Source: an uncultured Pirellulaceae bacterium (GTDB taxonomy: Bacteria > Planctomycetota > Planctomycetia > Pirellulales > Pirellulaceae). Taken from it: a stretch of 64,000 bases of DNA. The stretch covers positions 7,196-71,195 of the forward strand of contig CAYMWL010000021.1 in NCBI GenBank assembly GCA_964394305.1, given 5' to 3'. The notes under the pieces are model-generated. The model saw only the letters and a program-made list of their open reading frames with translations. It made no database searches and had not been told where the DNA came from. Position 1 is the stretch's first letter. Each line of letters opens with the position of its first letter. Positions 34,536-45,374 of this stretch are shown here, one piece after another. The position numbers and the translations under genes are program-made.

Positions 34536-37500
34536 ATGACGGCAACTTTATCTGTCACAGCAACAGCGGCCGAAAACCTTCGGCAGCTGCCCGATGCGCT
34601 TCGGCGTTATGAGGGCTTTGCCGAAGCGACAGCGGCTTTGACCAAGGGTCAACCCGCCACGTTCGACGGAGTCTGGGGATCAAGCTGCGCACTGCTTGCG
34701 GCCTCGCTTGCGCGAGCTGGCAATCGCCCACTGCTGATTGCCACCGCGCACGACCGCGAAGCTGATGATCTGGTCGCTGACCTGCCGCTCTTTGACGCTC
34801 CACACGCAGAAATTTTTCCGGCCTGGGATCCTGACTCGGAAGAGCGCGGCCTGCGCGACGAGAATTACGGCGAACGGATTCGGCTGCTGAAAAAACTGGC
34901 TCTGCATGCCGATGCAAAAGATCCGCCACTCTTCGCAGCCAGCATCGGCGCGCTGATGCAACCCGTGCCGAGTGCCGAGCTGATCCGCGGTTCGACGCGC
35001 ACGATGCGCCGCGGCGAAAGGATCGATATCGATGCGCTCCTCAAGTGGTTCGTCGAAAGTGGCTTTCACCCGACGAGCGCCGTTGAACTGCCGGGCGAGT
35101 TTTCGCACCGCGGCGGCATTCTCGATATCTATGCGCCCGACTGGCTTGAACCCGTTCGCCTGGAACTCTTCGACGACGAAATCGAATCGCTCCGCTCTTT
35201 CGATGTGGCAACGCAGCGCAGTTTGGAAGTGCTGGAATTCATCGAAGTCACCGTGCTGCCTAAAGATCAGCCGTTCACCGCACATCTCGCCGATCACTTT
35301 CCTGCAAATGCGTGGGCGCTGCTCGTTGAGCCGCAACAGTTGAGCGACGAGGCAAAGAACGTCCTCACGCGAGCGGCGGACACGGCGGTGTTTCATTCCG
35401 TGCAAGCGGTACTGGCCAGCGTGAGTCGGCTTGGTGTCGCGACGGCGGCTCATCTTTCGCCCGGCACCTATGGCGCGAATTGCCACCTGCCGATTGAATC
35501 GGTCGAGCGGTTCAGCGGCGATCTGCAGCGAGTGCGCGATGAGTTGGATCACGTCGCGGTCAACAACAACGTCTATTTGATTGTTGCGACCGATGCGGAA
35601 ACCGAACGCCTCCGCGAGTTGCTCCGCGAAACAAAGTTGATGGCCACGGGCCGGCTGCATTTCGTCGTCGGCAGTTTGCGCGAAGGGTTTCGCCTGCCGC
35701 GTGATGAGGCGCTGATCATCACCGGCGGCGAGTTGTTTCATCGTGGTGAACTGCGGCGAATTCCGCGGCGGCATCTCGGCAAGGCAATCGACAGCTTTCT
35801 CGATCTCCGTGATGGCGATCTGGTCGTGCATCTCGCGCATGGCATTGGTCGCTATCGCGGCCTGAAGCAGATCAGCAAAAATGGCCAGGCCGAAGAGCAT
35901 CTGGAAATCGAGTTCGACGGCGGCACACGCATTTATGTGCCGGCGATCAAAATCGACCTCGTGCAGAAATACGTCGGCGGCACGAAGACGCGGCCGACGC
36001 TCGCCAAGATCGGCGGCAAGACCTGGATCAAGCAAAAAGAGGCTGCCGAAGAAGCCGTCAAAGACCTCGCGGTCGAAATGCTCGAAGTGCAGGCCATGCG
36101 CAGCAGCCGGCCCGGCATTTCGTTCACCGTCGACAGTGAATGGCAACGCGAGTTCGACGCGTCGTTTCCGTATCGCGAAACCGTCGATCAGCTCAGTGCG
36201 ATCCGTGCAATTAAGGGGGACATGCAAAAGCCGCGGCCCATGGACCGCCTCCTCTGCGGCGACGTCGGTTTCGGCAAAACCGAAGTCGCCATGCGGGCTG
36301 CGTTCAAGGCCGTCGATAACGGCTATCAAGTCGCGGTGCTCGTGCCAACGACGATCCTCTGCGAACAACACTACCACAGTTTCAGCGAGCGGATGTCCGA
36401 GTTCCCGTTCGACATCGGCAAGCTCAGCCGGTTTTGCACGGCGCAAGAAACGCGCGAGACAATTAAGGGAATCAAAAGCGGCAAGGTCGACATCGTCATC
36501 GGCACGCACCGCATCGCTTCCAAAGACATCGAGTTCCACAACCTGGGCTTGGTGATCATCGACGAAGAGCAACGCTTCGGCGTCGACGTTAAAGAGCGAT
36601 TGAAATTGCTCCGTGCGACGGTGGACGTGCTCACACTCAGTGCAACGCCGATTCCGCGCACGCTGCACATGTCGCTCGTCGGCGTGCGCGATATTTCGAA
36701 TCTCGAATCGCCGCCAGAAGATCGCGTCGCGGTGGAAACGCGCGTCACGCGCTGGGACAACGATCTGATCAAGCATGCGATCAATCGCGAATTGGCCCGT
36801 GGCGGTCAGGCTTATTTCGTGCACAACCGTGTGAACGATATCGAGCAAATCGTCACTCGCATCAACAGCATCGTGCCCGAGGCCCGCATTCGCATTGGCC
36901 ATGCGCAGATGGCCGACGACGAACTCGAACAAGTGATGATCGACTTCGTCGCACACAAGTTCGACATTCTGGTTGCGACGACGATTGTCGAAAGCGGCCT
37001 CGATATTCCCAATGCCAATACGATTTTTATCGACGAGGCAGATCGCTACGGCCTCGCCGATTTGCATCAGCTTCGCGGCCGCGTGGGCCGGTACAAACAT
37101 CGGGCTTACTGTTATTTGCTGACCGACCCCAACAAGCACATCACGCCGAATGCTTCGCGCCGCTTGCGGGCGATCGAGGAGTTCAGCGAAATGGGGGCCG
37201 GCTTCGCGATCTCAATGCGCGATCTGGAAATTCGCGGCGCCGGCAACTTGCTCGGCACCCAGCAGAGCGGGCACATCGCGACGGTCGGCTACGAGCTCTA
37301 TTGCCAGCTGCTGGAAAATGCGGTGAGAGCGCTGCAGAACGCCGCGCCGCGGCTGAAGCTCGATGTCGATATCAATCTTCCCGGCGAAGCCTATCTGCCT
37401 GACGAATACATTCCCGATATCCGTTTGAAAATTGACCTCTATCGCCGACTGACGCGGATCAATACTTACCAAGAGCTGGCTGATCTGCGGGCTGAATTTG

Positions 37501-37790
37501 TCGACCGCTTCGGCCCGCCGCCGCGGCCCGTCGAACGGCTGATGGAAATCATCGAGCTGCGTATGGACGCTGCCTTGTGGTTCATTTCGGCGATTTTTCG
37601 CGAAGATAAGTTTCTTGTCTTTCAGTATCGCGATCGCTCCCGCATCGAACAGTTGGCCCGGCAACACAAAGGGAAATTGCGGGTTGTCGACGATAAATCG
37701 GCCTATCTGCCGTTGCCGGCGCAGAATCTCGAGGCCGACCAAATGTTTGCGTTGGTGAAATCCGTCCTGGCAGGCTCGCTCGCGAAGTAG
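34536..37790 (+). CDS. mfd: Transcription-repair coupling factor
   Basis: UvrB-like N-terminus; CarD/RID domain (HGIGRY); DRLLCGDVGFGKTEVA; DEEQRFG; LSATPIPRTL; QLRGRVGR; TRCF C-terminus. Confidence 0.98.
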   Translation: MTATLSVTATAAENLRQLPDALRRYEGFAEATAALTKGQPATFDGVWGSSCALLAASLARAGNRPLLIATAHDREADDLVADLPLFDAPHAEIFPAWDPDSEERGLRDENYGERIRLLKKLALHADAKDPPLFAASIGALMQPVPSAELIRGSTRTMRRGERIDIDALLKWFVESGFHPTSAVELPGEFSHRGGILDIYAPDWLEPVRLELFDDEIESLRSFDVATQRSLEVLEFIEVTVLPKDQPFTAHLADHFPANAWALLVEPQQLSDEAKNVLTRAADTAVFHSVQAVLASVSRLGVATAAHLSPGTYGANCHLPIESVERFSGDLQRVRDELDHVAVNNNVYLIVATDAETERLRELLRETKLMATGRLHFVVGSLREGFRLPRDEALIITGGELFHRGELRRIPRRHLGKAIDSFLDLRDGDLVVHLAHGIGRYRGLKQISKNGQAEEHLEIEFDGGTRIYVPAIKIDLVQKYVGGTKTRPTLAKIGGKTWIKQKEAAEEAVKDLAVEMLEVQAMRSSRPGISFTVDSEWQREFDASFPYRETVDQLSAIRAIKGDMQKPRPMDRLLCGDVGFGKTEVAMRAAFKAVDNGYQVAVLVPTTILCEQHYHSFSERMSEFPFDIGKLSRFCTAQETRETIKGIKSGKVDIVIGTHRIASKDIEFHNLGLVIIDEEQRFGVDVKERLKLLRATVDVLTLSATPIPRTLHMSLVGVRDISNLESPPEDRVAVETRVTRWDNDLIKHAINRELARGGQAYFVHNRVNDIEQIVTRINSIVPEARIRIGHAQMADDELEQVMIDFVAHKFDILVATTIVESGLDIPNANTIFIDEADRYGLADLHQLRGRVGRYKHRAYCYLLTDPNKHITPNASRRLRAIEEFSEMGAGFAISMRDLEIRGAGNLLGTQQSGHIATVGYELYCQLLENAVRALQNAAPRLKLDVDINLPGEAYLPDEYIPDIRLKIDLYRRLTRINTYQELADLRAEFVDRFGPPPRPVERLMEIIELRMDAALWFISAIFREDKFLVFQYRDRSRIEQLARQHKGKLRVVDDKSAYLPLPAQNLEADQMFALVKSVLAGSLAK

Positions 37791-37910
37791 CCCAAGATTG
37801 CATTCACGCGAGTTCACTTGGCTCGCAGAATCAGCCATACTAGTTTCTGATTGCCCGCGTCGCCCGCTCATCGATCCGTTTCTACTATGAACAATCTTTG
37901 GTGCCTCACG

Positions 37911-39491
37911 ATGACAAAACGTCGCTGCCGGCAGGCGGCTGTCGATCGCACGTTGGTGGTGATCTTAGGTTCGCTTGTCGTGCTCGTGTTCCTTGTCGTG
38001 ACGCTGTTGCGGAATAAGCCCGGTGTCAAACCGCCGGGAAATCAAGCCGACGCGGCGAAGCAGGTTCAGCCGCTCGTCGTATATTGCGCCGCCAGCAACA
38101 AGAGCGTGATCGAAGCAATTCGCCGCGACTATGAACGCGAATTTCAAGTGCCGCTGGAGTTGCAATATGGTGCTTCGCAAACCTTGCTGGCTTCGTTGTC
38201 GGTAACCGGCACCGGTGACTTGTATCTGCCGGCGGACGACAGTTTTTTGATTGCGGCGCGCGAGAAGCAATTGATTGATGACGAGTATCAGCTCGCAACA
38301 ATGCAGGCCGTCGTCGCCGTAGCCAAGGGGAATCCGCTGCAGATCAAAACCTGGGGCGACCTTCTCAAACCAGAAGTGCGTATCGCCCAAGCCAATCCTG
38401 AAGCAGCTGCCATCGGCAAACTGGTGAAAGCTTCGCTCGATGAGCGAAGTTTGTGGAAGCCTCTGCATGAGCACACGACAGTCTTCAAAACAACCATCAC
38501 GGAAGTAGCCAACGATCTGAAAGCCAATGCCGTCGACGCCGGCATTGTCTTCGACGCAGTGCTGCACGATTACAAAACACTGGAAGGTGTCACGCTGCCG
38601 GAACTTGAGCCCGTGAAAGCCAACGTGGCCATTTCCGTTCTCAAGTCGAGCACGCAAGCCCGCCAGGCGCGGCACTTTGCCCGTTATGTCTCGGCGAGTG
38701 ACAAGGGCTTGAAACATTATCGCGAGTTCGGCTTTCAGCCTGTCGCGAGTGAAAAATGGAGCGAGGCGCCCGAACTTACGCTCTATTCCGGCTCGATGCT
38801 CCGCCCCGCCATCGAGCAGACAATCACGGACTTCGAAAAAGAAGAAGGCGTACGCGTGACCCGCGTCTACAACGGCTGCGGCATTCTCGTCGCCCAGATG
38901 AAAGCCGGGCAAGTTCCGGATGCATACTTTGCCTGCGACCTCGAATTCATGAAGCAGGTAAAGGAAATTTTCCCGGCGTACGAAAGCATCTCGCAGAATG
39001 AACTCGTCATTCTGGTGAAAAAGGGAAACCCTGCCGGCATTCGAAATTTGAAAGACCTTTCGAAGGATGGCCTGCGTATCGGCATTGGACATGAAAAGCA
39101 ATGTGCGATGGGCTGGCTGACGCAGCGCACGTTTGACGAAGGGGGCGTGCGCGAATCGGTGATGAAAAACGTCGTCGTACAAACGCCGACCGGCGACATG
39201 TTGGTGAATCAAATGCGTTCCGGATCGCTCGACGCGGCGGTCGCCTATTTGAGCAATGCCGCCGGCGCTAAGGATGATCTTGATGCGATTCGCATTCAGG
39301 GCATTCCCTGTTCCATCGCCAGTCAACCTTTCGGCATCGCTAAGGATACGCCGCACAAGCAGCTCGCCGCACGGTTGCTGACGGCCATCAAGGCCAAGGA
39401 ATCGCAGGAGCGATTTACCAAAGAGGGATTCCGCTTGGCGGATGAGGAAGCCGAGAAACCTGATGACGCGAAGGCTACTCCGGATGAGTGA
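37911..39491 (+). CDS. modA: Molybdate/tungstate-type ABC substrate-binding protein with two tandem ModA-like domains
   Basis: N-terminal TM anchor. Domain 1: YCAAS, YGASQTL, ANPEAAAIG. Domain 2: YSGSML, YNGCGIL, QCAMG. Start may be 37887. Confidence 0.85.
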   Translation: MTKRRCRQAAVDRTLVVILGSLVVLVFLVVTLLRNKPGVKPPGNQADAAKQVQPLVVYCAASNKSVIEAIRRDYEREFQVPLELQYGASQTLLASLSVTGTGDLYLPADDSFLIAAREKQLIDDEYQLATMQAVVAVAKGNPLQIKTWGDLLKPEVRIAQANPEAAAIGKLVKASLDERSLWKPLHEHTTVFKTTITEVANDLKANAVDAGIVFDAVLHDYKTLEGVTLPELEPVKANVAISVLKSSTQARQARHFARYVSASDKGLKHYREFGFQPVASEKWSEAPELTLYSGSMLRPAIEQTITDFEKEEGVRVTRVYNGCGILVAQMKAGQVPDAYFACDLEFMKQVKEIFPAYESISQNELVILVKKGNPAGIRNLKDLSKDGLRIGIGHEKQCAMGWLTQRTFDEGGVRESVMKNVVVQTPTGDMLVNQMRSGSLDAAVAYLSNAAGAKDDLDAIRIQGIPCSIASQPFGIAKDTPHKQLAARLLTAIKAKESQERFTKEGFRLADEEAEKPDDAKATPDE

Positions 39492-40323
39492 AGTGCCGCC
39501 CGCGCAGCGACCGCATAAGGCAGGTTCCGATTGGCCGTTCATGATTGTCCTCAGTATTCTGGGTGGCAGTTATGTCCTGCTGATCGTCGCGCTGCTGATC
39601 GCCGATTTGGCTTACACTTCACCACGTCATTTTTCTGCCGCACTCGCTAAACCGGAAATTCAGTATGCGATCTGGCTCACCATGGTGAGTTGTTCGATTT
39701 CTGCATTGCTCTCGGTGTGGGTTGCGACTCCGCTGGGATATTTGCTCTCGCGATTTACCTTTCGTGGCCGCTGGTTGATTGACACCATCATTGACATCCC
39801 CGTCGTGCTGCCCCCGCTCGTGATTGGTCTCAGCTTGTTGATTTTGTTCCATCTGCCGGTGGGTGGCACGAACCTCGAGCGACAGATGCAGCGTCTGCTT
39901 GGTCTGCGCATTACGTACGCAGAACCTGCCGTCGTGCTCGCGCAATTTGCGGTTGCTTGTGCATTCGCCGTGCAAACGATGCGAGTTACGTTCGACCAGA
40001 TTGATACCCGTGCGGAACAAGTCGCGCTCACGCTCGGCTGTCGACGGAGCCAGGCGTTTTTCCAAGTCACAATGCCGCAGGCGTGGCGTGGCATGATCGC
40101 TGCGTTGACGATTGCCTGGGCTCGTTCGCTCGGCGAATTCGGCCCGATTCTCGTTTTTGCCGGCGCCACGCGCATGCGGACGGAGGTGCTCTCGACGACC
40201 GTGTTCCTGGAACTCAGCGTGGGCCAACTCGAAGCTGCGGTCGCGGTTTCGTTGCTCATGGTCGTCGCCTCGATGTTGGTGCTCGGCGTCGTGCGATTGC
40301 TCGGGACCAAGGTGACCCGATGA
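39484..40323 (+). CDS. modB: Molybdate ABC transporter permease
   Basis: DIPVVLPPLVIGLSLL; EQVALTLG; WARSLGEFGPILVFAG; start overlaps the modA stop. Confidence 0.9.
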   Translation: MSEVPPAQRPHKAGSDWPFMIVLSILGGSYVLLIVALLIADLAYTSPRHFSAALAKPEIQYAIWLTMVSCSISALLSVWVATPLGYLLSRFTFRGRWLIDTIIDIPVVLPPLVIGLSLLILFHLPVGGTNLERQMQRLLGLRITYAEPAVVLAQFAVACAFAVQTMRVTFDQIDTRAEQVALTLGCRRSQAFFQVTMPQAWRGMIAALTIAWARSLGEFGPILVFAGATRMRTEVLSTTVFLELSVGQLEAAVAVSLLMVVASMLVLGVVRLLGTKVTR

Positions 40324-40997
40324 TCGAACTGCAAAATCTTTCGCTTCGCGCCGGCGCGTTCTCGCTGTTGAATGTAGACTTGCTGATTCCTCAGGGAACG
40401 TACGCGGTGCTGATGGGCGGTACGGGACAGGGAAAGACTTCGCTGCTCGAGGTTATCTGCGGCTTGAAGCCAGTCGCCGCGGGAAAAGTCCGACTTGCCG
40501 GACAGGACGTCACGCATTGGAAACCCGCCGACCGCGGCATTGGCTATGTGCCGCAGGACCTGGCGCTCTTTCCGACGATTTCGGTTCGTGGCCATTTGGA
40601 ATTTGCGCTCAAGTTGCGGAACTGGTCGACTGCGGCAATGCGCGACCGCGTCGCTCACCTCGCCAGCGTGCTCAGCATCGAACATTTGCTCGATCGAGGC
40701 GTGCGGCATTTGAGCGGCGGCGAAGCGCAGCGTGTGGCGATCGGCCGCGCGATTTCTTTCGAGCCTGAAGTGCTGCTGATGGATGAACCACTCAACGCGC
40801 TGGATGAAACGACTCGCGATCGACTCTGCAATTTGTTACGGACCATTCATGCCCAAATCAAGTTGACGACGTTGCATATCACACATAGCCGCTCAGAAGC
40901 TCGACAAGTCGCTGATAAGTTCTACTTTCTCGTGGCTGGCAAGCTGCAAGAACGCCCCGTGTCTGAACTTGATGGACTCGCCAACCACTTTCACTGA
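40320..40997 (+). CDS. modC: ABC transporter ATP-binding protein (ModC-like, no TOBE domain)
   Basis: GGTGQGKTS; YVPQD; LSGGEAQR; LLMDEP; ITHS; ATGA overlap with modB. Not separately listed in the ORF track. Confidence 0.88.
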   Translation: MIELQNLSLRAGAFSLLNVDLLIPQGTYAVLMGGTGQGKTSLLEVICGLKPVAAGKVRLAGQDVTHWKPADRGIGYVPQDLALFPTISVRGHLEFALKLRNWSTAAMRDRVAHLASVLSIEHLLDRGVRHLSGGEAQRVAIGRAISFEPEVLLMDEPLNALDETTRDRLCNLLRTIHAQIKLTTLHITHSRSEARQVADKFYFLVAGKLQERPVSELDGLANHFH

Positions 40998-41007
40998 TTC
41001 CGTCCCC

Positions 41008-41289
41008 ATGAAACTGATCGTCAAATATTCCGCACAACTTCGCACGGCCTTGCAACGGGCCGAGGAGGTGATTGAACTGCCGCCGGCGAGCCGGCTGTCC
41101 GAACTGCTGCTGCATCTCGCCGAACGCCATGACTCCGGCCGGCCGCACTTGCTGAACGCCAAGGGAAACGTCCAAGCCAGTTTGCTCGTTGTGGTGAACG
41201 AAGCTGCAGTGGCGGCGAACGACGCAACCACGTGGCAACTCAACGAAGGCGATGTGGTCCTTTTATTGCCGCCAATCGCGGGAGGATAG
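41008..41289 (+). CDS. MoaD/ThiS family sulfur-carrier protein
   Basis: 93 aa, ubiquitin-like fold pattern; ends LNEGDVVLLLPPIAGG with C-terminal GG. Confidence 0.92.
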   Translation: MKLIVKYSAQLRTALQRAEEVIELPPASRLSELLLHLAERHDSGRPHLLNAKGNVQASLLVVVNEAAVAANDATTWQLNEGDVVLLLPPIAGG

Positions 41290-41295
41290 TGGGCC

Positions 41296-42048
41296 ATGAC
41301 AGAGCTGCCTCCACTAACTCCCGAAGAACGCCGTCGATACGAATGGCAACTTTGGGTCCCCGATTTCGGCGAAGCCGGCCAGCAGCGATTGAAAGCCGCG
41401 ACGGTTTTGGTTTCCCGTATCGGCGGCGTCGGTGGCACCGCCGCATTGCAACTCGCGGCGGCGGGAGTGGGCAGATTGATACTTGCCCACGGCGGCGAAC
41501 TGCGGCTCAACGATCTCAATCGCCAGTTGCTCATGACGACCGCGGGCATCGGCGTGCGACGAGTCGAACTCGCAACCGAGCGTTTGCGCGAACTCAATCC
41601 GCATGTCGAGATTGAAACCGTCGCCGAAAATTTCAGCGAAGCCAATGCGGCCGAACTCGTCAGTCGCTGCAATTTGATCATCAGCGCGGCGCCACTCTTT
41701 GCCGAACGAATGCTGATGAATCGCGAAGCGGTTCGCCAACGCAAGCCGCTCATCGACTGTGCGATGTACGAGCTGGAAGGTCGCCTGACGACGATCATCC
41801 CCGGCCAAACTCCCTGTCTCGCTTGCATGTATCCTGAGCCTCCGGTCAATTGGAATCGCGAATTCCCGGTATTCAGCGCGGTTTCATCAACTGTGGGATC
41901 GATGGCAGGCATGGAAGCAATCAAGTTGCTGGCGAGCTTGGGTGAACCGCTGGCGGGGCGACTCCTCGTTTTCGATTTGCGCGACATGAGCTTTCGCAAG
42001 CTCTCGATCGCGCGCCGCGCTGACTGTGCCGTTTGCGGGGAACTGTAA
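41296..42048 (+). CDS. HesA/MoeB/ThiF family adenylyltransferase, HesA-like
   Basis: RYEWQLWVPDFGEAGQQRLK; GGVGG; ILAHGGELRLNDLNRQ; LTTIIPGQTPCLAC; CAVCG. Confidence 0.9.
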   Translation: MTELPPLTPEERRRYEWQLWVPDFGEAGQQRLKAATVLVSRIGGVGGTAALQLAAAGVGRLILAHGGELRLNDLNRQLLMTTAGIGVRRVELATERLRELNPHVEIETVAENFSEANAAELVSRCNLIISAAPLFAERMLMNREAVRQRKPLIDCAMYELEGRLTTIIPGQTPCLACMYPEPPVNWNREFPVFSAVSSTVGSMAGMEAIKLLASLGEPLAGRLLVFDLRDMSFRKLSIARRADCAVCGEL

Positions 42049-42059
42049 GGAATAGGGCG

Positions 42060-45000
42060 ATGACCAATAAATTGCTGCCGCTGTTGCTGTATCTGTTCGT
42101 TGGGACCGCGACCGCCGCCGATTGGCCGATGTATCGCGGCGATGCGGAGCGAACTGGCTACACGGCTGAACCGCTCCCTGCGAAGCTGTCGCTGGTGTGG
42201 ACTTATCGTCCCACGCATCCGCCGACTCCGGCGTGGCCACGAGACGATCGCATGCTCTTTGATCGTGCCAGCGATGTGGTCATCAGCGGCGGCGTGGCAA
42301 TCTTCGGCAGTTCCAGCGATAGCCAGGTGATCGCGCTCGATGCTGCAACCGGCGCGCATCGGTGGACTTTTTTTGCCGATGCTCCCGTCCGATTCGCGGC
42401 GGCCATCTGGCACGACAAAGCGTTCATCGTGAGCGACGACGGCATGTTGTATTGCCTCGCGGTTGCTGACGGCAAATTGTTGAACCAATGGCGCGGCGGT
42501 CCCACCGATGACTTGATCCTCGGCAACGGCCGGATGGTTTCGCGCTGGCCCGCGCGCGGTGGACCTGTCATTCGCGATGACATCGTCTATTTCGCCGCAG
42601 GCATCTGGCAGTCGGAGAGAATCTATCTGACTGCGATCAACGCGGAGACCGGCAAACAGATTTGGCAGAATGACAAGGCGGGGCAGATCTACATGCCGCA
42701 GCCGCACGGCGGCGCGATGGCCAACAGCGGTGTGTCGGCGCAGGGCTATCTGGTGGCGAATGACAACGAGTTGATCGTGCCCACCGGCCGTGCAGTCCCT
42801 GCCGGTTTCGCGCGGCGGAGTGGTGAGTTTCTTTACTATCACTTGCAAGCCAACGGACACATCGGCGGCACACAGACGGTCGTGGCCGATGACACGTTCT
42901 ACAACGGTGGCTCGGCGTTTCGAAACGAAAATGGCGCGCTCGTGGCCAAGTTGGGAGTTGGATCGATCGCGGCAACTCCAGCCGGCACGTTGTTTGGCAC
43001 GAAGAAAGATGTGCGGCTCGTCAAATTGATCGAGAAGACTGCGCCCGATCGCAAAGGGGTACCGACGAAAACAATGGACCACCAGGTGGAATGGTCCGTT
43101 GCTGATGTCGACGGCAGCGCGTCCCTCATTGTTGCTGGCCACGTCGTCGTCGCCGGAGGCAGCATTAGCGGAGGCAACGGCAAGGTGACAGCCATCGATG
43201 TGCAGTCGCAAAAAATACTCTGGTCCGCAGAAGTCGCGGGCATTCCGTATGGTTTGGCCGCAGCGAATGGCAAACTCTATGTCAGCACCGATCGCGGCGA
43301 AATTCATTGCTTTGCAACAGAAGCGAGTTCCAAACCAGCAGTTATTACTCTGCCGCAAACAAAGATCGTTGCGAATGCCCAAGCGACGAAGGCTGCGCAG
43401 GAGATCCTGCGGAAAACGAGCGTCACTGAAGGATTCTGCCTCGATCTCGATTGCGACGACGGCGAATTGGCCGTTGCCTTGGCTCAGCAATCGAAGTTGC
43501 AAATCTATGCCGTTCATTCCAGCGCTGAAGATGTCGCCGCGTTGCGAAAAAAGTTGGCCGCGGCCGGCTTGTACGGCACTCGCATCACTGTACATCAAGG
43601 CACCCGTGACAAGCTCCGCTACGGCAAGTACTTTGCGGACCTCGTGGTTTCCAGCCAATCGCTGAAGTCGGGACCAATCCCCTCGACGGCAGATAAGATT
43701 CCCTCGGCGCTTCGACCTGCTGGCGGGCAACTCTGCTCCGGCAAGGTTGGCAACATGGAAACGTTCCAACGCCCCGCCCTTGCTCGTGCGGGGAGTTGGA
43801 CGCATCAATACTCCGATCTCGGCAATAGCAGTTGCTCGACCGATGAGATTGTGAAAGGTGACTTGCGGGCCCTCTGGTTTCGCGATGTGGATCTCGAAAT
43901 GCCGCAACGGCATGGCCGCGGTCATGCGCCGCTGTTTCAAGACGGCCGAATGTTTGTCGAAGGAATGGGTGCCCTCCGCGCGGTCGATGGTTACAACGGC
44001 CGCAACTTGTGGGAGTTCCCGCTGCCGAACATTCAAGCTGCGTACAATGCCGACCATCTGTCGGGAACTTCGGTGACTGGCAGCAATTTCTGCGTGGCCG
44101 ACGGCAACGTGTATGTGCACGACAAGTTGCAATGTTACCGTCTCGATGCCGCAACTGGTCGCAAACTGGGGGAATTCAAGACGCCCGTCAATAAGGACCG
44201 CAAGCCTGGTTCGTGGGGCTATATCGCCAGCGACGGCAAGTTGCTGTTTGGCTCGGTCGCCAATCCGCAGCATGTTGCTCGCTTTGCTTGGAAGTTCGCC
44301 GATGTGAGCGAGTTGTGGGGCGAATCGGCGACGTTTTTCGCGCTCGATGCCAAGTCCGGCGAACTGCGCTGGAAATACGACGCCGAGGAATCGATCCGTC
44401 ACAATGCGATCACGATCGGCAACGGCCACGTTTATTTGATCGACCGCGCCATCGCCAAAGAAGACAAGCTGACAACGGTCGACAAGGCCGGTAAGTTGCC
44501 GGCCGTCGCGGCGGTGAAGCATTCGCCGGGACAGATCGTCGCGCTCGATATCAATACGGGAGAGATTGCTTGGAAAGGGGAACGCGATGCCTTCGGCACT
44601 GTTCTCTCGCTTAGTCCGCAGCACGACACGCTGCTGATGAGTTATCAATCGACGCGGTTCAAGTTGCCTTCGGAAGTCGGCGGCAAGTTGGCTGCCTATC
44701 GCGCAAGCACGGGCAAACCTCTGTGGCAAAAAGAAGCCAAGTACGTTACCCGTCCGCTGATTAACGATCGCACCATCTACGCCCAAGGAGGCTCTTGGGA
44801 TCTGATCACTGGCGAAGAAAAAGGCTTCACGTTGAACCGCTCGTACGGCTGCGGACAGTTCGCGGGCTCGAAGCACATGCTGCTGTTCCGTTCCGCAACA
44901 CTTGGCTATTTGGACCTGTCTCGCGGCTCGGGCGTCGAAAACTACGGTGGTATCCGCCCCGGCTGTTGGATCAACGCGCTTCCCGTCGGCGGCCTGGTGC

Positions 45001-45083
45001 TGGTGCCCGATGCCTCGGCGGGCTGTGCCTGCAGCTATCAGAATCGAAGTTGGATGGCGCTGTCGGGGACGGGGGATGAGTGA
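42060..45083 (+). CDS. Exported PQQ-binding-like beta-propeller protein with central methyltransferase-like domain
   Basis: Signal peptide + DWPMYRGD; Trp-docking repeats (ALDAATG..RW); LDLDCDDG insert; second propeller starting WTHQYSD; C-terminal YGCG, RPGCW, GCACSY. Confidence 0.85.
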   Translation: MTNKLLPLLLYLFVGTATAADWPMYRGDAERTGYTAEPLPAKLSLVWTYRPTHPPTPAWPRDDRMLFDRASDVVISGGVAIFGSSSDSQVIALDAATGAHRWTFFADAPVRFAAAIWHDKAFIVSDDGMLYCLAVADGKLLNQWRGGPTDDLILGNGRMVSRWPARGGPVIRDDIVYFAAGIWQSERIYLTAINAETGKQIWQNDKAGQIYMPQPHGGAMANSGVSAQGYLVANDNELIVPTGRAVPAGFARRSGEFLYYHLQANGHIGGTQTVVADDTFYNGGSAFRNENGALVAKLGVGSIAATPAGTLFGTKKDVRLVKLIEKTAPDRKGVPTKTMDHQVEWSVADVDGSASLIVAGHVVVAGGSISGGNGKVTAIDVQSQKILWSAEVAGIPYGLAAANGKLYVSTDRGEIHCFATEASSKPAVITLPQTKIVANAQATKAAQEILRKTSVTEGFCLDLDCDDGELAVALAQQSKLQIYAVHSSAEDVAALRKKLAAAGLYGTRITVHQGTRDKLRYGKYFADLVVSSQSLKSGPIPSTADKIPSALRPAGGQLCSGKVGNMETFQRPALARAGSWTHQYSDLGNSSCSTDEIVKGDLRALWFRDVDLEMPQRHGRGHAPLFQDGRMFVEGMGALRAVDGYNGRNLWEFPLPNIQAAYNADHLSGTSVTGSNFCVADGNVYVHDKLQCYRLDAATGRKLGEFKTPVNKDRKPGSWGYIASDGKLLFGSVANPQHVARFAWKFADVSELWGESATFFALDAKSGELRWKYDAEESIRHNAITIGNGHVYLIDRAIAKEDKLTTVDKAGKLPAVAAVKHSPGQIVALDINTGEIAWKGERDAFGTVLSLSPQHDTLLMSYQSTRFKLPSEVGGKLAAYRASTGKPLWQKEAKYVTRPLINDRTIYAQGGSWDLITGEEKGFTLNRSYGCGQFAGSKHMLLFRSATLGYLDLSRGSGVENYGGIRPGCWINALPVGGLVLVPDASAGCACSYQNRSWMALSGTGDE

Positions 45084-45113
45084 AAAACACCGCCGCCTTG
45101 TACGGGGGAATTT

Positions 45114-45374
45114 GATAACACTTTTTGTGTCTGCTTGAAAGTTGCAACGGGTGAATTGCGCAATACTTGCGCATGAACAGGGAACAAGTTTGATAACATC
45201 GCGACCCTGGTTTCGGAGGACCGAAAACCGACGCAAGCGGTGTTTTATTAAGGACTTATGTCGCAGTCGGCATATCTTCGTTGTTAACATCGCGATAACC
45301 CGTGATAACCACTGACAAGTGCTCAATAAGCCTTCGTGCCAATTTGATAACGCTCTCTGATAACACCTGATAAC
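45114..45374 (+). other. Non-coding GATAAC-box element, copy B (convergent intergenic region)
   Basis: GATAAC at 45114, 45192, 45294, 45304, 45346, 45359 and 45369, plus GTTAAC at 45283; all on one strand. Confidence 0.75.

Follow-up and report, generated by a model that had tools for sequence, protein, structure and literature searches.

The window analysed here is a stretch of 64,000 nucleotides from the genome of an uncultured Pirellulaceae bacterium (contig CAYMWL010000021.1 of assembly GCA_964394305.1, 96% complete; the other contigs of this genome carry C numbers below), and it contains, at 37911-45083, six plus-strand open reading frames (ORFs) encoding an importer of the molybdate/tungstate type, a small MoaD-like protein with a HesA-type, E1-like partner, and an exported beta-propeller protein, PROP1. 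The names of homologues assign the organism to the genus Anatilimnocola. We found that these genes are the Anatilimnocola version of a conserved and so far uncharacterised gene module that is shared by Planctomycetota and related members of the Planctomycetes-Verrucomicrobia-Chlamydiae (PVC) group. The window holds the importer, the carrier/E1 pair and an extra propeller paralogue, PROP1, and the core propeller of the module, a larger protein (PROP2), is encoded on contig C25 together with a further core protein that we call X400. We tentatively favour, as a reading that may well prove wrong, a system independent of the molybdenum cofactor (Moco), in which the Mo/W-type oxyanion importer and the HesA-type carrier pair would serve exported propellers by way of periplasmic thiol chemistry. 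Full-text literature searches surfaced only papers on HesA and no description of the module; new here are the relationship to HesA, the separation from canonical ModA and Moco synthesis, the four-way co-occurrence across the phylum, the thioredoxin-like fold predicted for X400, and the recognition of PROP1 as a recent addition.

Gene maps centred on the tandem ModA-like gene (33 genomes) and on the HesA-like gene (80 public loci, many of them short contigs, from Pirellulales, Planctomycetales, Gemmatales and Verrucomicrobiota metagenome-assembled genomes, MAGs) revealed a recurrent set that consists of a propeller protein of 1200-1400 aa (PROP2 or a relative, PROP3), X400, often a permease of the MacB/FtsX type with its ATPase, and then ModA2-ModB-ModC-MoaD-HesA. 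Mod genes were present in 52 of the 80 loci, X400 in 27, a propeller in 28 and FtsX in 16, and no rhodanese, desulfurase, Mec/JAMM, MoaE or CysM gene recurred among them. Around the tandem ModA-like gene of 61 related genomes the same partners returned in varying orders and orientations, and where modules were split, the X400, ATP-binding cassette (ABC) and HesA genes remained together. The PROP2-X400 pair lies apart from the cluster in the window's genome and convergent to it in Anatilimnocola aggregata and in a genome of the same genus as the window's own (G002). The first-pass annotation had joined importer, carrier pair and exported propeller in one system; this linkage is borne out by the synteny and by the phylum-wide co-occurrence described below, with the corrections that X400 had been overlooked and that PROP1 itself is linked in close relatives only.

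Among the 61 relatives, the HesA-like gene and X400 were found together in 30 genomes, each alone in two, and neither in 27. The propeller family, present in 33, was accompanied by the HesA-like gene in 30 and stood alone in three, and neither occurred in 26; the two HesA-positive genomes without this family have a divergent PROP3 next to X400. Profile searches of 301 evenly sampled Planctomycetota genomes, in which HesA-like proteins scored above 320 bits and MoeB-type proteins about 205-260 bits, gave 42 genomes with both HesA-like protein and X400 (8 and 10 with one of them alone, 241 with neither), 44 with both tandem ModA and HesA-like protein (6 and 6 alone, 245 neither) and 52 with both the propeller family and the module (10 and 8 alone, 231 neither). 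About one in six of the sampled Planctomycetota genomes has the module, which is found in Verrucomicrobiota as well. The strongest part of this co-occurrence is the contrast within genera: the genera g1, g63, g66, g67 and g70 each comprise species with the complete set of parts and species without any of them, the parts often lying far apart on the chromosome. In one family (f26, 24 genomes), the HesA-like protein, X400 and the propeller family occur in an identical set of 15 genomes. A single set of helper genes, in genomes where scattered propeller genes can number in the dozens, looks like the pattern of a maturation system with its clients; a common route of uptake for what many enzymes produce would agree with it as well.

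By its sequence the E1-like protein is of the HesA type, with nif HesA as the nearest relative found. We located the nif clusters of two cyanobacterial genomes from the locus search and compared their ThiF-family genes with that of the window, which encodes a protein 49% identical to the nif-linked HesA of Okeania (a gene 4 kb from nifEN, with the same active-site substitutions) whereas its identity to the MoeB/MoeZ-type proteins of the same genome is 24-30%. In a maximum-likelihood tree (IQ-TREE), the E1-like proteins of the module formed one clade with the nif-linked HesA sequences, of which two closely related ones were included, with support of 100/99, and this clade was separate from E. 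coli MoeB, ThiF and MoeZ-type proteins. The HesA label of the first-pass annotation is thereby upheld. The protein has the ThiF fold (Pfam ThiF, 169 bits) but scored under every MoeB/ThiF equivalog cut-off (TIGR02355, 152.9 bits against 376). With the MoeB-MoaD and ThiF-ThiS pairs of E. coli (PDB 1JW9 and 1ZFN) it also shares the Gly-rich loop ('GGVGG'), the equivalents of MoeB Arg73 and Arg135 (R76 and R138), the Zn-type CxxC pairs (C174/C177 and C244/C247) and an adjacent gene for a beta-grasp partner with a Gly-Gly end. However, alignment to MoeB (1JW9) placed His65, Gly67 and Pro133 at the positions of Asp62, Asp64 and Asp130, these residues being invariant in 23 orthologues and the replacements conserved in 81, and there is no MoaE or ThiG gene nearby. 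In MoeB, Asp130 and Asp62 are acidic residues of catalysis and ribose binding. Among the nif-linked HesA proteins, which are known from cyanobacteria, Paenibacillus and Frankia, the closely related ones compared here have likewise lost the MoeB acidic residues, and the module proteins form a sister clade to them; unlike these, the window's protein is encoded beside an importer and a MoaD-like partner of its own, outside any nif cluster, in a genome where no nitrogenase was found.

HesA has been known for decades to be required genetically for nitrogenase in cyanobacteria and Paenibacillus, and to our knowledge no reaction has been assigned to it. In Paenibacillus, hesA mutants lose nitrogenase activity but keep nitrate reductase and are rescued by high molybdate or by cystine, so that HesA is tied genetically to the supply of Mo and S for nitrogenase and not to Moco (PMC6361004).

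Two further arrangements of HesA-clade genes were observed. Diazotrophic cyanobacteria (Okeania sp. SIO2C9, locus L148 9166-12797, and locus L155) have two members, one of them in the nif cluster; the other, 59% identical to the window's protein, has its own MoaD-like partner and is located outside the nif cluster, between an ABC system of the NMT1 type (sulfonate/nitrate-like) and an anion transporter of the ChrA family. In genomes of the Rhodopirellula/Rubripirellula type, a second, MoeZ-like ThiF gene of about 385-400 aa (35-38% identical) adjoins the HesA-like gene (L165 11036-11794, L177, L189, L191, L199 and L201; also genomes G020, G028 and G032), and its product groups in the tree with cyanobacterial 390-aa MoeZ-type proteins.

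The MoaD-like protein, one of four ThiS-family proteins encoded in the genome, matched Pfam ThiS with 43 bits and ends in ...PPIAGG, a Gly-Gly terminus found in 37 of 40 orthologues. It has this C-terminal feature of MoaD in common with the family, but neither the equivalog scores (moaD_arch 45.4 bits, cut-off 49.5; SAMP1 42.3, cut-off 60; bacterial moaD TIGR01682 27.4, cut-off 66.15) nor a MoaE partner. Canonical moaD, moaE and moaA lie together on contig C110, which holds the only MoaE gene of the genome, and there are two separate 390-aa MoeB/MoeZ-type genes. MoaE, a single-copy gene, is present in 60 of the 61 related genomes and HesA-like orthologues occur in 32; because MoaE is near-universal and the pair is present in only about half of the relatives, the carrier/E1 pair is an addition to Moco synthesis and not a scattered piece of it. 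This disposes of one half of the refutation that the first-pass annotation had allowed for, the half in which the moaD/hesA pair would simply complement a dispersed canonical pathway. Its statement that the window contains no moaACE or moeA gene, no Mo/W enzyme and no nif gene agrees with our genome searches, which placed such genes on other contigs or found none: five or six enzymes with a molybdenum bis-pyranopterin guanine dinucleotide cofactor (Mo-bisPGD; C1, C8, C91, C11 and C15), one aldehyde ferredoxin oxidoreductase (AOR, on C46), and no nifDK-family match in the 96% complete assembly.

All three parts of the importer are closest to Mo/W families (modA, NifC-like and WtpC), and it has the three-part layout, dependent on a substrate-binding protein (SBP), of the ModABC, WtpABC and NifC systems. 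The SBP differs from those of these systems in being a membrane-anchored fusion of two domains. It matched Pfam SBP_bac_11 with 254 bits over two stretches, and its sequence matches in the PDB were molybdate-binding proteins, except for the marginal sulfate-binding 1sbp (E values of 1e-9 to 1e-3). Against the modA model TIGR01256 (cut-off 62.5), the fused protein scored 100.1 bits but the two domains 57.7 and 47.3 bits, compared with 150-200 bits for the canonical single-domain ModA of relatives. Domain 1 retains the Ser of 'YGASQ', whereas domain 2 has conserved Cys residues ('NGCG' and 'faCD') at the oxyanion-contact positions where ModA has Ser or Ala. The permease scored 194.4 bits on the 'NifC-like' model TIGR01581 (cut-off 210.3) and 146.2 on modB TIGR02141 (cut-off 182.6), and the ATPase matched WtpC best (202 bits, cut-off 440, model positions 1-210 of 347), ahead of modC TIGR02142 (160.8 bits, cut-off 285, model positions 5-212 of 353). 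Both therefore fall below the ModB and ModC cut-offs, and the ATPase also lacks the TOBE/Mop domain. The first-pass annotation had named the importer ModA-ModB-ModC, a name that is not borne out as it stands, each SBP domain alone scoring under the modA cut-off; the SBP would instead represent a divergent ModA-like family and not an ordinary ModA. Its partners are HesA, X400 and propellers rather than Moco genes. Canonical ModA was not found in the window's genome, where the tandem gene is the only ModA-type gene found, and both kinds coexist in three relatives (A. aggregata, G046 and G056).

Selenocysteine in the SBP was considered and rejected, as the 'in-frame TGA' flags in orthologue matches were the true stop codon or upstream stops at the ends of matches. 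Variants of the importer occur elsewhere: a ModB-like permease is fused to a third SBP_bac_11-like domain at L163 (6775-8424), the ModB-like permease has an extra domain in some lineages (for example at L187, 7633-9558), and other lineages have inserts of 150-370 aa, or genes without a Pfam match, between the importer genes. Apart from the third SBP domain in one variant, the inserts in longer ModB variants gave no informative Pfam match.

The AlphaFold model of PROP1 (pLDDT, the predicted local distance difference test score, 87.6) has two propellers around a Rossmann-type middle domain. Its best Foldseek matches in the PDB were alcohol dehydrogenases dependent on pyrroloquinoline quinone (PQQ), BamB and tetrathionate hydrolase, which share the propeller fold at 13-16% identity, and the N-terminal 'DWPMYRGD' region weakly matched Pfam PQQ and TIGR03075. 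PROP1 falls outside the PQQ-dependent dehydrogenases and BamB by score (TIGR03075, 64.9 bits, cut-off 480; BamB TIGR03300, 71.8 bits, cut-off 285) and by their single-propeller architecture, having two propellers, a methyltransferase-like domain and an invariant residue set of its own. Residues W580, H582, R617, H618, R927, C931, R944, R966, C969, C989 and C991 were invariant in 60 PROP1 homologues and five PROP2 proteins, and the clustered Cys residues to which the first-pass annotation drew attention are thus four (C931, C969, C989 and C991) that are invariant in both groups. A search for pqqC gave no match, and the control genomes gave no match either.

PROP3 is circularly permuted relative to PROP1, with the methyltransferase-like domain and the Cys-bearing propeller first, followed by a 'DWPxYR' propeller that is interrupted by LamG. 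In Planctomycetales and some Pirellulales, this permuted propeller is encoded next to X400 (L158 1287-5189, L091 1002-4958 and L103 15073-19029).

X400 has about 400 aa and no Pfam match, and its gene directly follows that of PROP2 or PROP3. The structural model (pLDDT 81) contains thioredoxin-like folds that resemble the a-b fragment of protein disulfide isomerase and fragments of quiescin sulfhydryl oxidase (QSOX), together with a C-terminal membrane helix, and the sequence has an invariant N-terminal Cys and a CxC motif. X400 is a periplasmic, membrane-anchored protein.

In the Moco-independent system that we favour, the importer would take up a tetrahedral oxyanion of the molybdate/tungstate type, and the HesA-type enzyme would activate the MoaD-like carrier at its Gly-Gly end, which would then be converted to a thiocarboxylate. 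The carrier sulfur would be used outside pterin-cofactor synthesis, in the simplest case for turning the imported oxyanion into a sulfur-bound form, and it is to such processing of an oxyanion that the genetic data on nif HesA point. The propellers of the exported family would depend on the product, and X400 may carry out periplasmic thiol chemistry or hand the product over. That the chemistry of the module is Mo/W-sulfur chemistry is plausible but unproven, and the non-pterin Mo/W-S species and the thiolated propeller substrate proposed in the first-pass annotation are hypothetical. A more specific form, which we regard as unlikely, holds that the module is the maturation pathway of a new kind of periplasmic enzyme, in which the E1 and carrier proteins would make a non-pterin metal-sulfur (or other thiolate-bound) centre from the imported Mo/W-type oxyanion and X400 would install it in the propellers; if true, this would give nif HesA a role as a Mo-sulfur processing enzyme. 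The arrangement can be compared by analogy of working with NosDFY-NosL and NosZ, where an exported propeller is likewise combined with an ABC system and a small periplasmic handler of Cys or metal. No homology to that system was detected, however, and no copper site is evident here; NosFY is an exporter of the ABC-2 type rather than an SBP-dependent importer or a MacB-type pump, and the Nos system has no E1/ubiquitin-like pair.

Several observations weigh against a Moco-independent system serving exported propellers. As the carrier and E1 proteins are cytoplasmic and the propellers are exported by the Sec route, there is no route for a product back across the membrane; we know of no MacB-type pump that carries a cytoplasmic product to exported proteins, and the MacB-type pair is absent from many loci. 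The Asp on which MoeB depends for its Mg-ATP chemistry is missing from the E1-like protein, and adenylation of the carrier is therefore not assured; the role of Asp130 in MoeB was reportedly described by Lake et al. in 2001. Since the single SBP domains score under the modA cut-off, the transported ion could be another. The window's own PROP1 is linked to the other genes in near relatives only, and the malectin or LamG modules present in propeller paralogues point to glycan substrates rather than to metal chemistry. Finally, the co-occurrence was counted by hand from tables, with thresholds that we set ourselves, among genomes that are related to each other.

The conserved Cys residues of SBP domain 2 and of X400 are also in keeping with sulfur acquisition, in which the periplasmic propellers would free a sulfur oxyanion (e.g. 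thiosulfate) from substrates outside the cell, the ModA-like importer would take it up, and HesA/MoaD would capture its sulfur as a thiocarboxylate, like CysO, for assimilation. The rescue of hesA mutants by cystine (PMC6361004), the position of the second cyanobacterial HesA/MoaD pair between two transporters, and the presence of tetrathionate hydrolase among the structural matches of PROP1 speak for this explanation, but the match to tetrathionate hydrolase was no better than those to BamB or quinoproteins. Furthermore, both SBP domains are ModA-sized and ModA-like, models of sulfate- and thiosulfate-binding proteins gave short, weak matches only, and the genome has a separate CysT/W-type pair of sulfate permeases on C48. 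None of the genes for CysM, Mec/JAMM, rhodanese or desulfurase, moreover, recurred in the 80 loci. We consider sulfur acquisition improbable.

The likeness of the transporter parts to Mo/W families would also suit an ordinary metal supply, that is, a high-affinity Mo/W importer with MoaD and E1 as a second sulfur branch of molybdopterin synthase, which might supply certain molybdoenzymes or the W cofactor of AOR, for instance; the genes for X400 and the propeller would then be mere neighbours. The genome does encode an AOR as well as Mo-bisPGD enzymes, a further ModA-type gene was not found in it, and extra MoaD/MoeB pairs linked to AOR are known (PMC1779556). In one relative (G033), moreover, both AOR genes stand beside parts of the module (L222 6692-11093 and L223 5835-11151), one of them oriented divergently to the genes for X400 and the accompanying ABC ATPase, the other adjoining a propeller paralogue. 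However, AOR tracks the module weakly across the 61 relatives (20 with both, 11 with AOR only, 12 with the module only, 18 with neither), A. aggregata has the full cluster and no AOR, and AOR was therefore rejected as the client of the module. Canonical ModA exists alongside the tandem protein in the three relatives named above, MoaE is single-copy and near-universal where the pair is patchy, and the E1-like protein lies outside the MoeB clade and lacks Asp130. An ordinary metal supply would also leave the tight co-occurrence with exported X400 and propellers unexplained, and we judge it quite unlikely.

Whether PROP1 belongs to the system at all is a separate matter, because in eight other genera its orthologues (46-54% identical) are accompanied by neither mod nor thiF genes, nor by any conserved neighbours that we could find, and the same-genus genome G002 has the five other genes without PROP1. 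Taken alone, these observations would favour a bystander, i.e. a recently inserted paralogue with an unrelated job behind a real operon of modA2-modB-modC-moaD-hesA. Against this stand the gap of 11 bp to hesA on the same strand, the preservation of the arrangement in A. aggregata (exact six-gene order, 78% identity) and in three MAG loci (61-71%), the invariant Cys/Arg/His set shared with the module-linked PROP2, and the near-confinement of the whole propeller family to genomes that bear the module, so that a bystander is a rather doubtful explanation. PROP1 is a recent, lineage-specific paralogous addition that stands behind hesA in near relatives only. The first-pass annotation had counted this gene as part of the operon; the conserved partner is its paralogue PROP2 with X400.

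A sister family of HesA exists in non-diazotrophs, where it is accompanied by a molybdate-like importer and a Gly-Gly carrier of its own, and it offers a second and simpler setting for the chemistry of HesA. Once solved, the module would provide an annotation for thousands of 'BamB-like' genes and could bring to light a new cofactor or a new route for sulfur, and even a specialised branch of Mo/W or S uptake would correct the routine annotation of modABC, moaD, moeB and bamB.

The features are listed in Table 1. All six ORFs are present and as tightly packed as first annotated, with successive junctions of -8, -4, +10, +6 and +11 bp; the SBP and permease genes overlap by 8 bp and the permease and ATPase genes by ATGA, a spacing from which co-transcription of the six genes may be presumed. 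A codon-usage gene caller trained on the Pfam-supported genes of the window chose the same start for four of the six genes and differed at the SBP gene (37887) and the MoaD-like gene (40969). For the latter, the start at 41008 is backed by orthologue alignments, and the tandem ModA-like gene has alternative starts at 37851 and 37887.

Table 1. Genes of the cluster in the window and the PROP2-X400 pair on contig C25.
Feature	Position	Strand	Family models or remark
Tandem ModA-like substrate-binding protein (two SBP_bac_11 domains, N-terminal transmembrane anchor)	37911..39491	+	Pfam SBP_bac_11, TIGR01256
ABC importer permease (ModB/NifC-like)	39484..40323	+	BPD_transp_1
ABC ATPase (ModC/WtpC-like), 225 aa, without C-terminal TOBE/Mop domain	40320..40997	+	ABC_tran
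MoaD/ThiS-fold small protein, Gly-Gly end, sulfur-carrier type	41008..41289	+	Pfam ThiS
HesA-clade E1-like ThiF-family protein, 250 aa, without rhodanese domain	41296..42048	+	Pfam ThiF
PROP1, 1007 aa, Sec-type signal peptide, two PQQ-like propellers and degenerate Methyltransf_25-like middle domain	42060..45083	+	Pfam PQQ_2, PQQ, Methyltransf_25
Pair of PROP2 (1262 aa, propellers and malectin-like tail) and, directly after it, X400	C25:13425-18363 (locus L059 11926-16864)		The module's conserved pair in the window's genome

When the cluster was scanned for promoters and terminators, no site resembled a promoter, and terminators were about as numerous as expected by chance. Rfam gave no match in the cluster and only tRNAs in 14 related loci; because there is no Moco riboswitch anywhere in the genome, the blank result says nothing about riboswitch control.

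A minus-strand ORF of 1477 aa (40893-45326), antisense to the genes for the HesA-like protein and the propeller, is rejected by its codon-usage score, as are comparably long shadow ORFs opposite modA and mfd. In this GC-rich genome, such long antisense ORFs would mislead gene calls based on the longest ORF. The flanks of the cluster are unrelated to it, with Mfd upstream and LysM, TIM-barrel and UbiA proteins downstream. The gene for Mfd (34536-37790) is directly upstream of the cluster; two verrucomicrobial loci (L145 14721-17828 and L151 12691-15804) also have an mfd gene close to the HesA-like gene, about 3-4 kb downstream of it, a recurring proximity that is probably due to chance. Past the propeller gene, just outside the cluster, the gap at 45114-45374 contains a dense GATAAC array according to the first-pass annotation.

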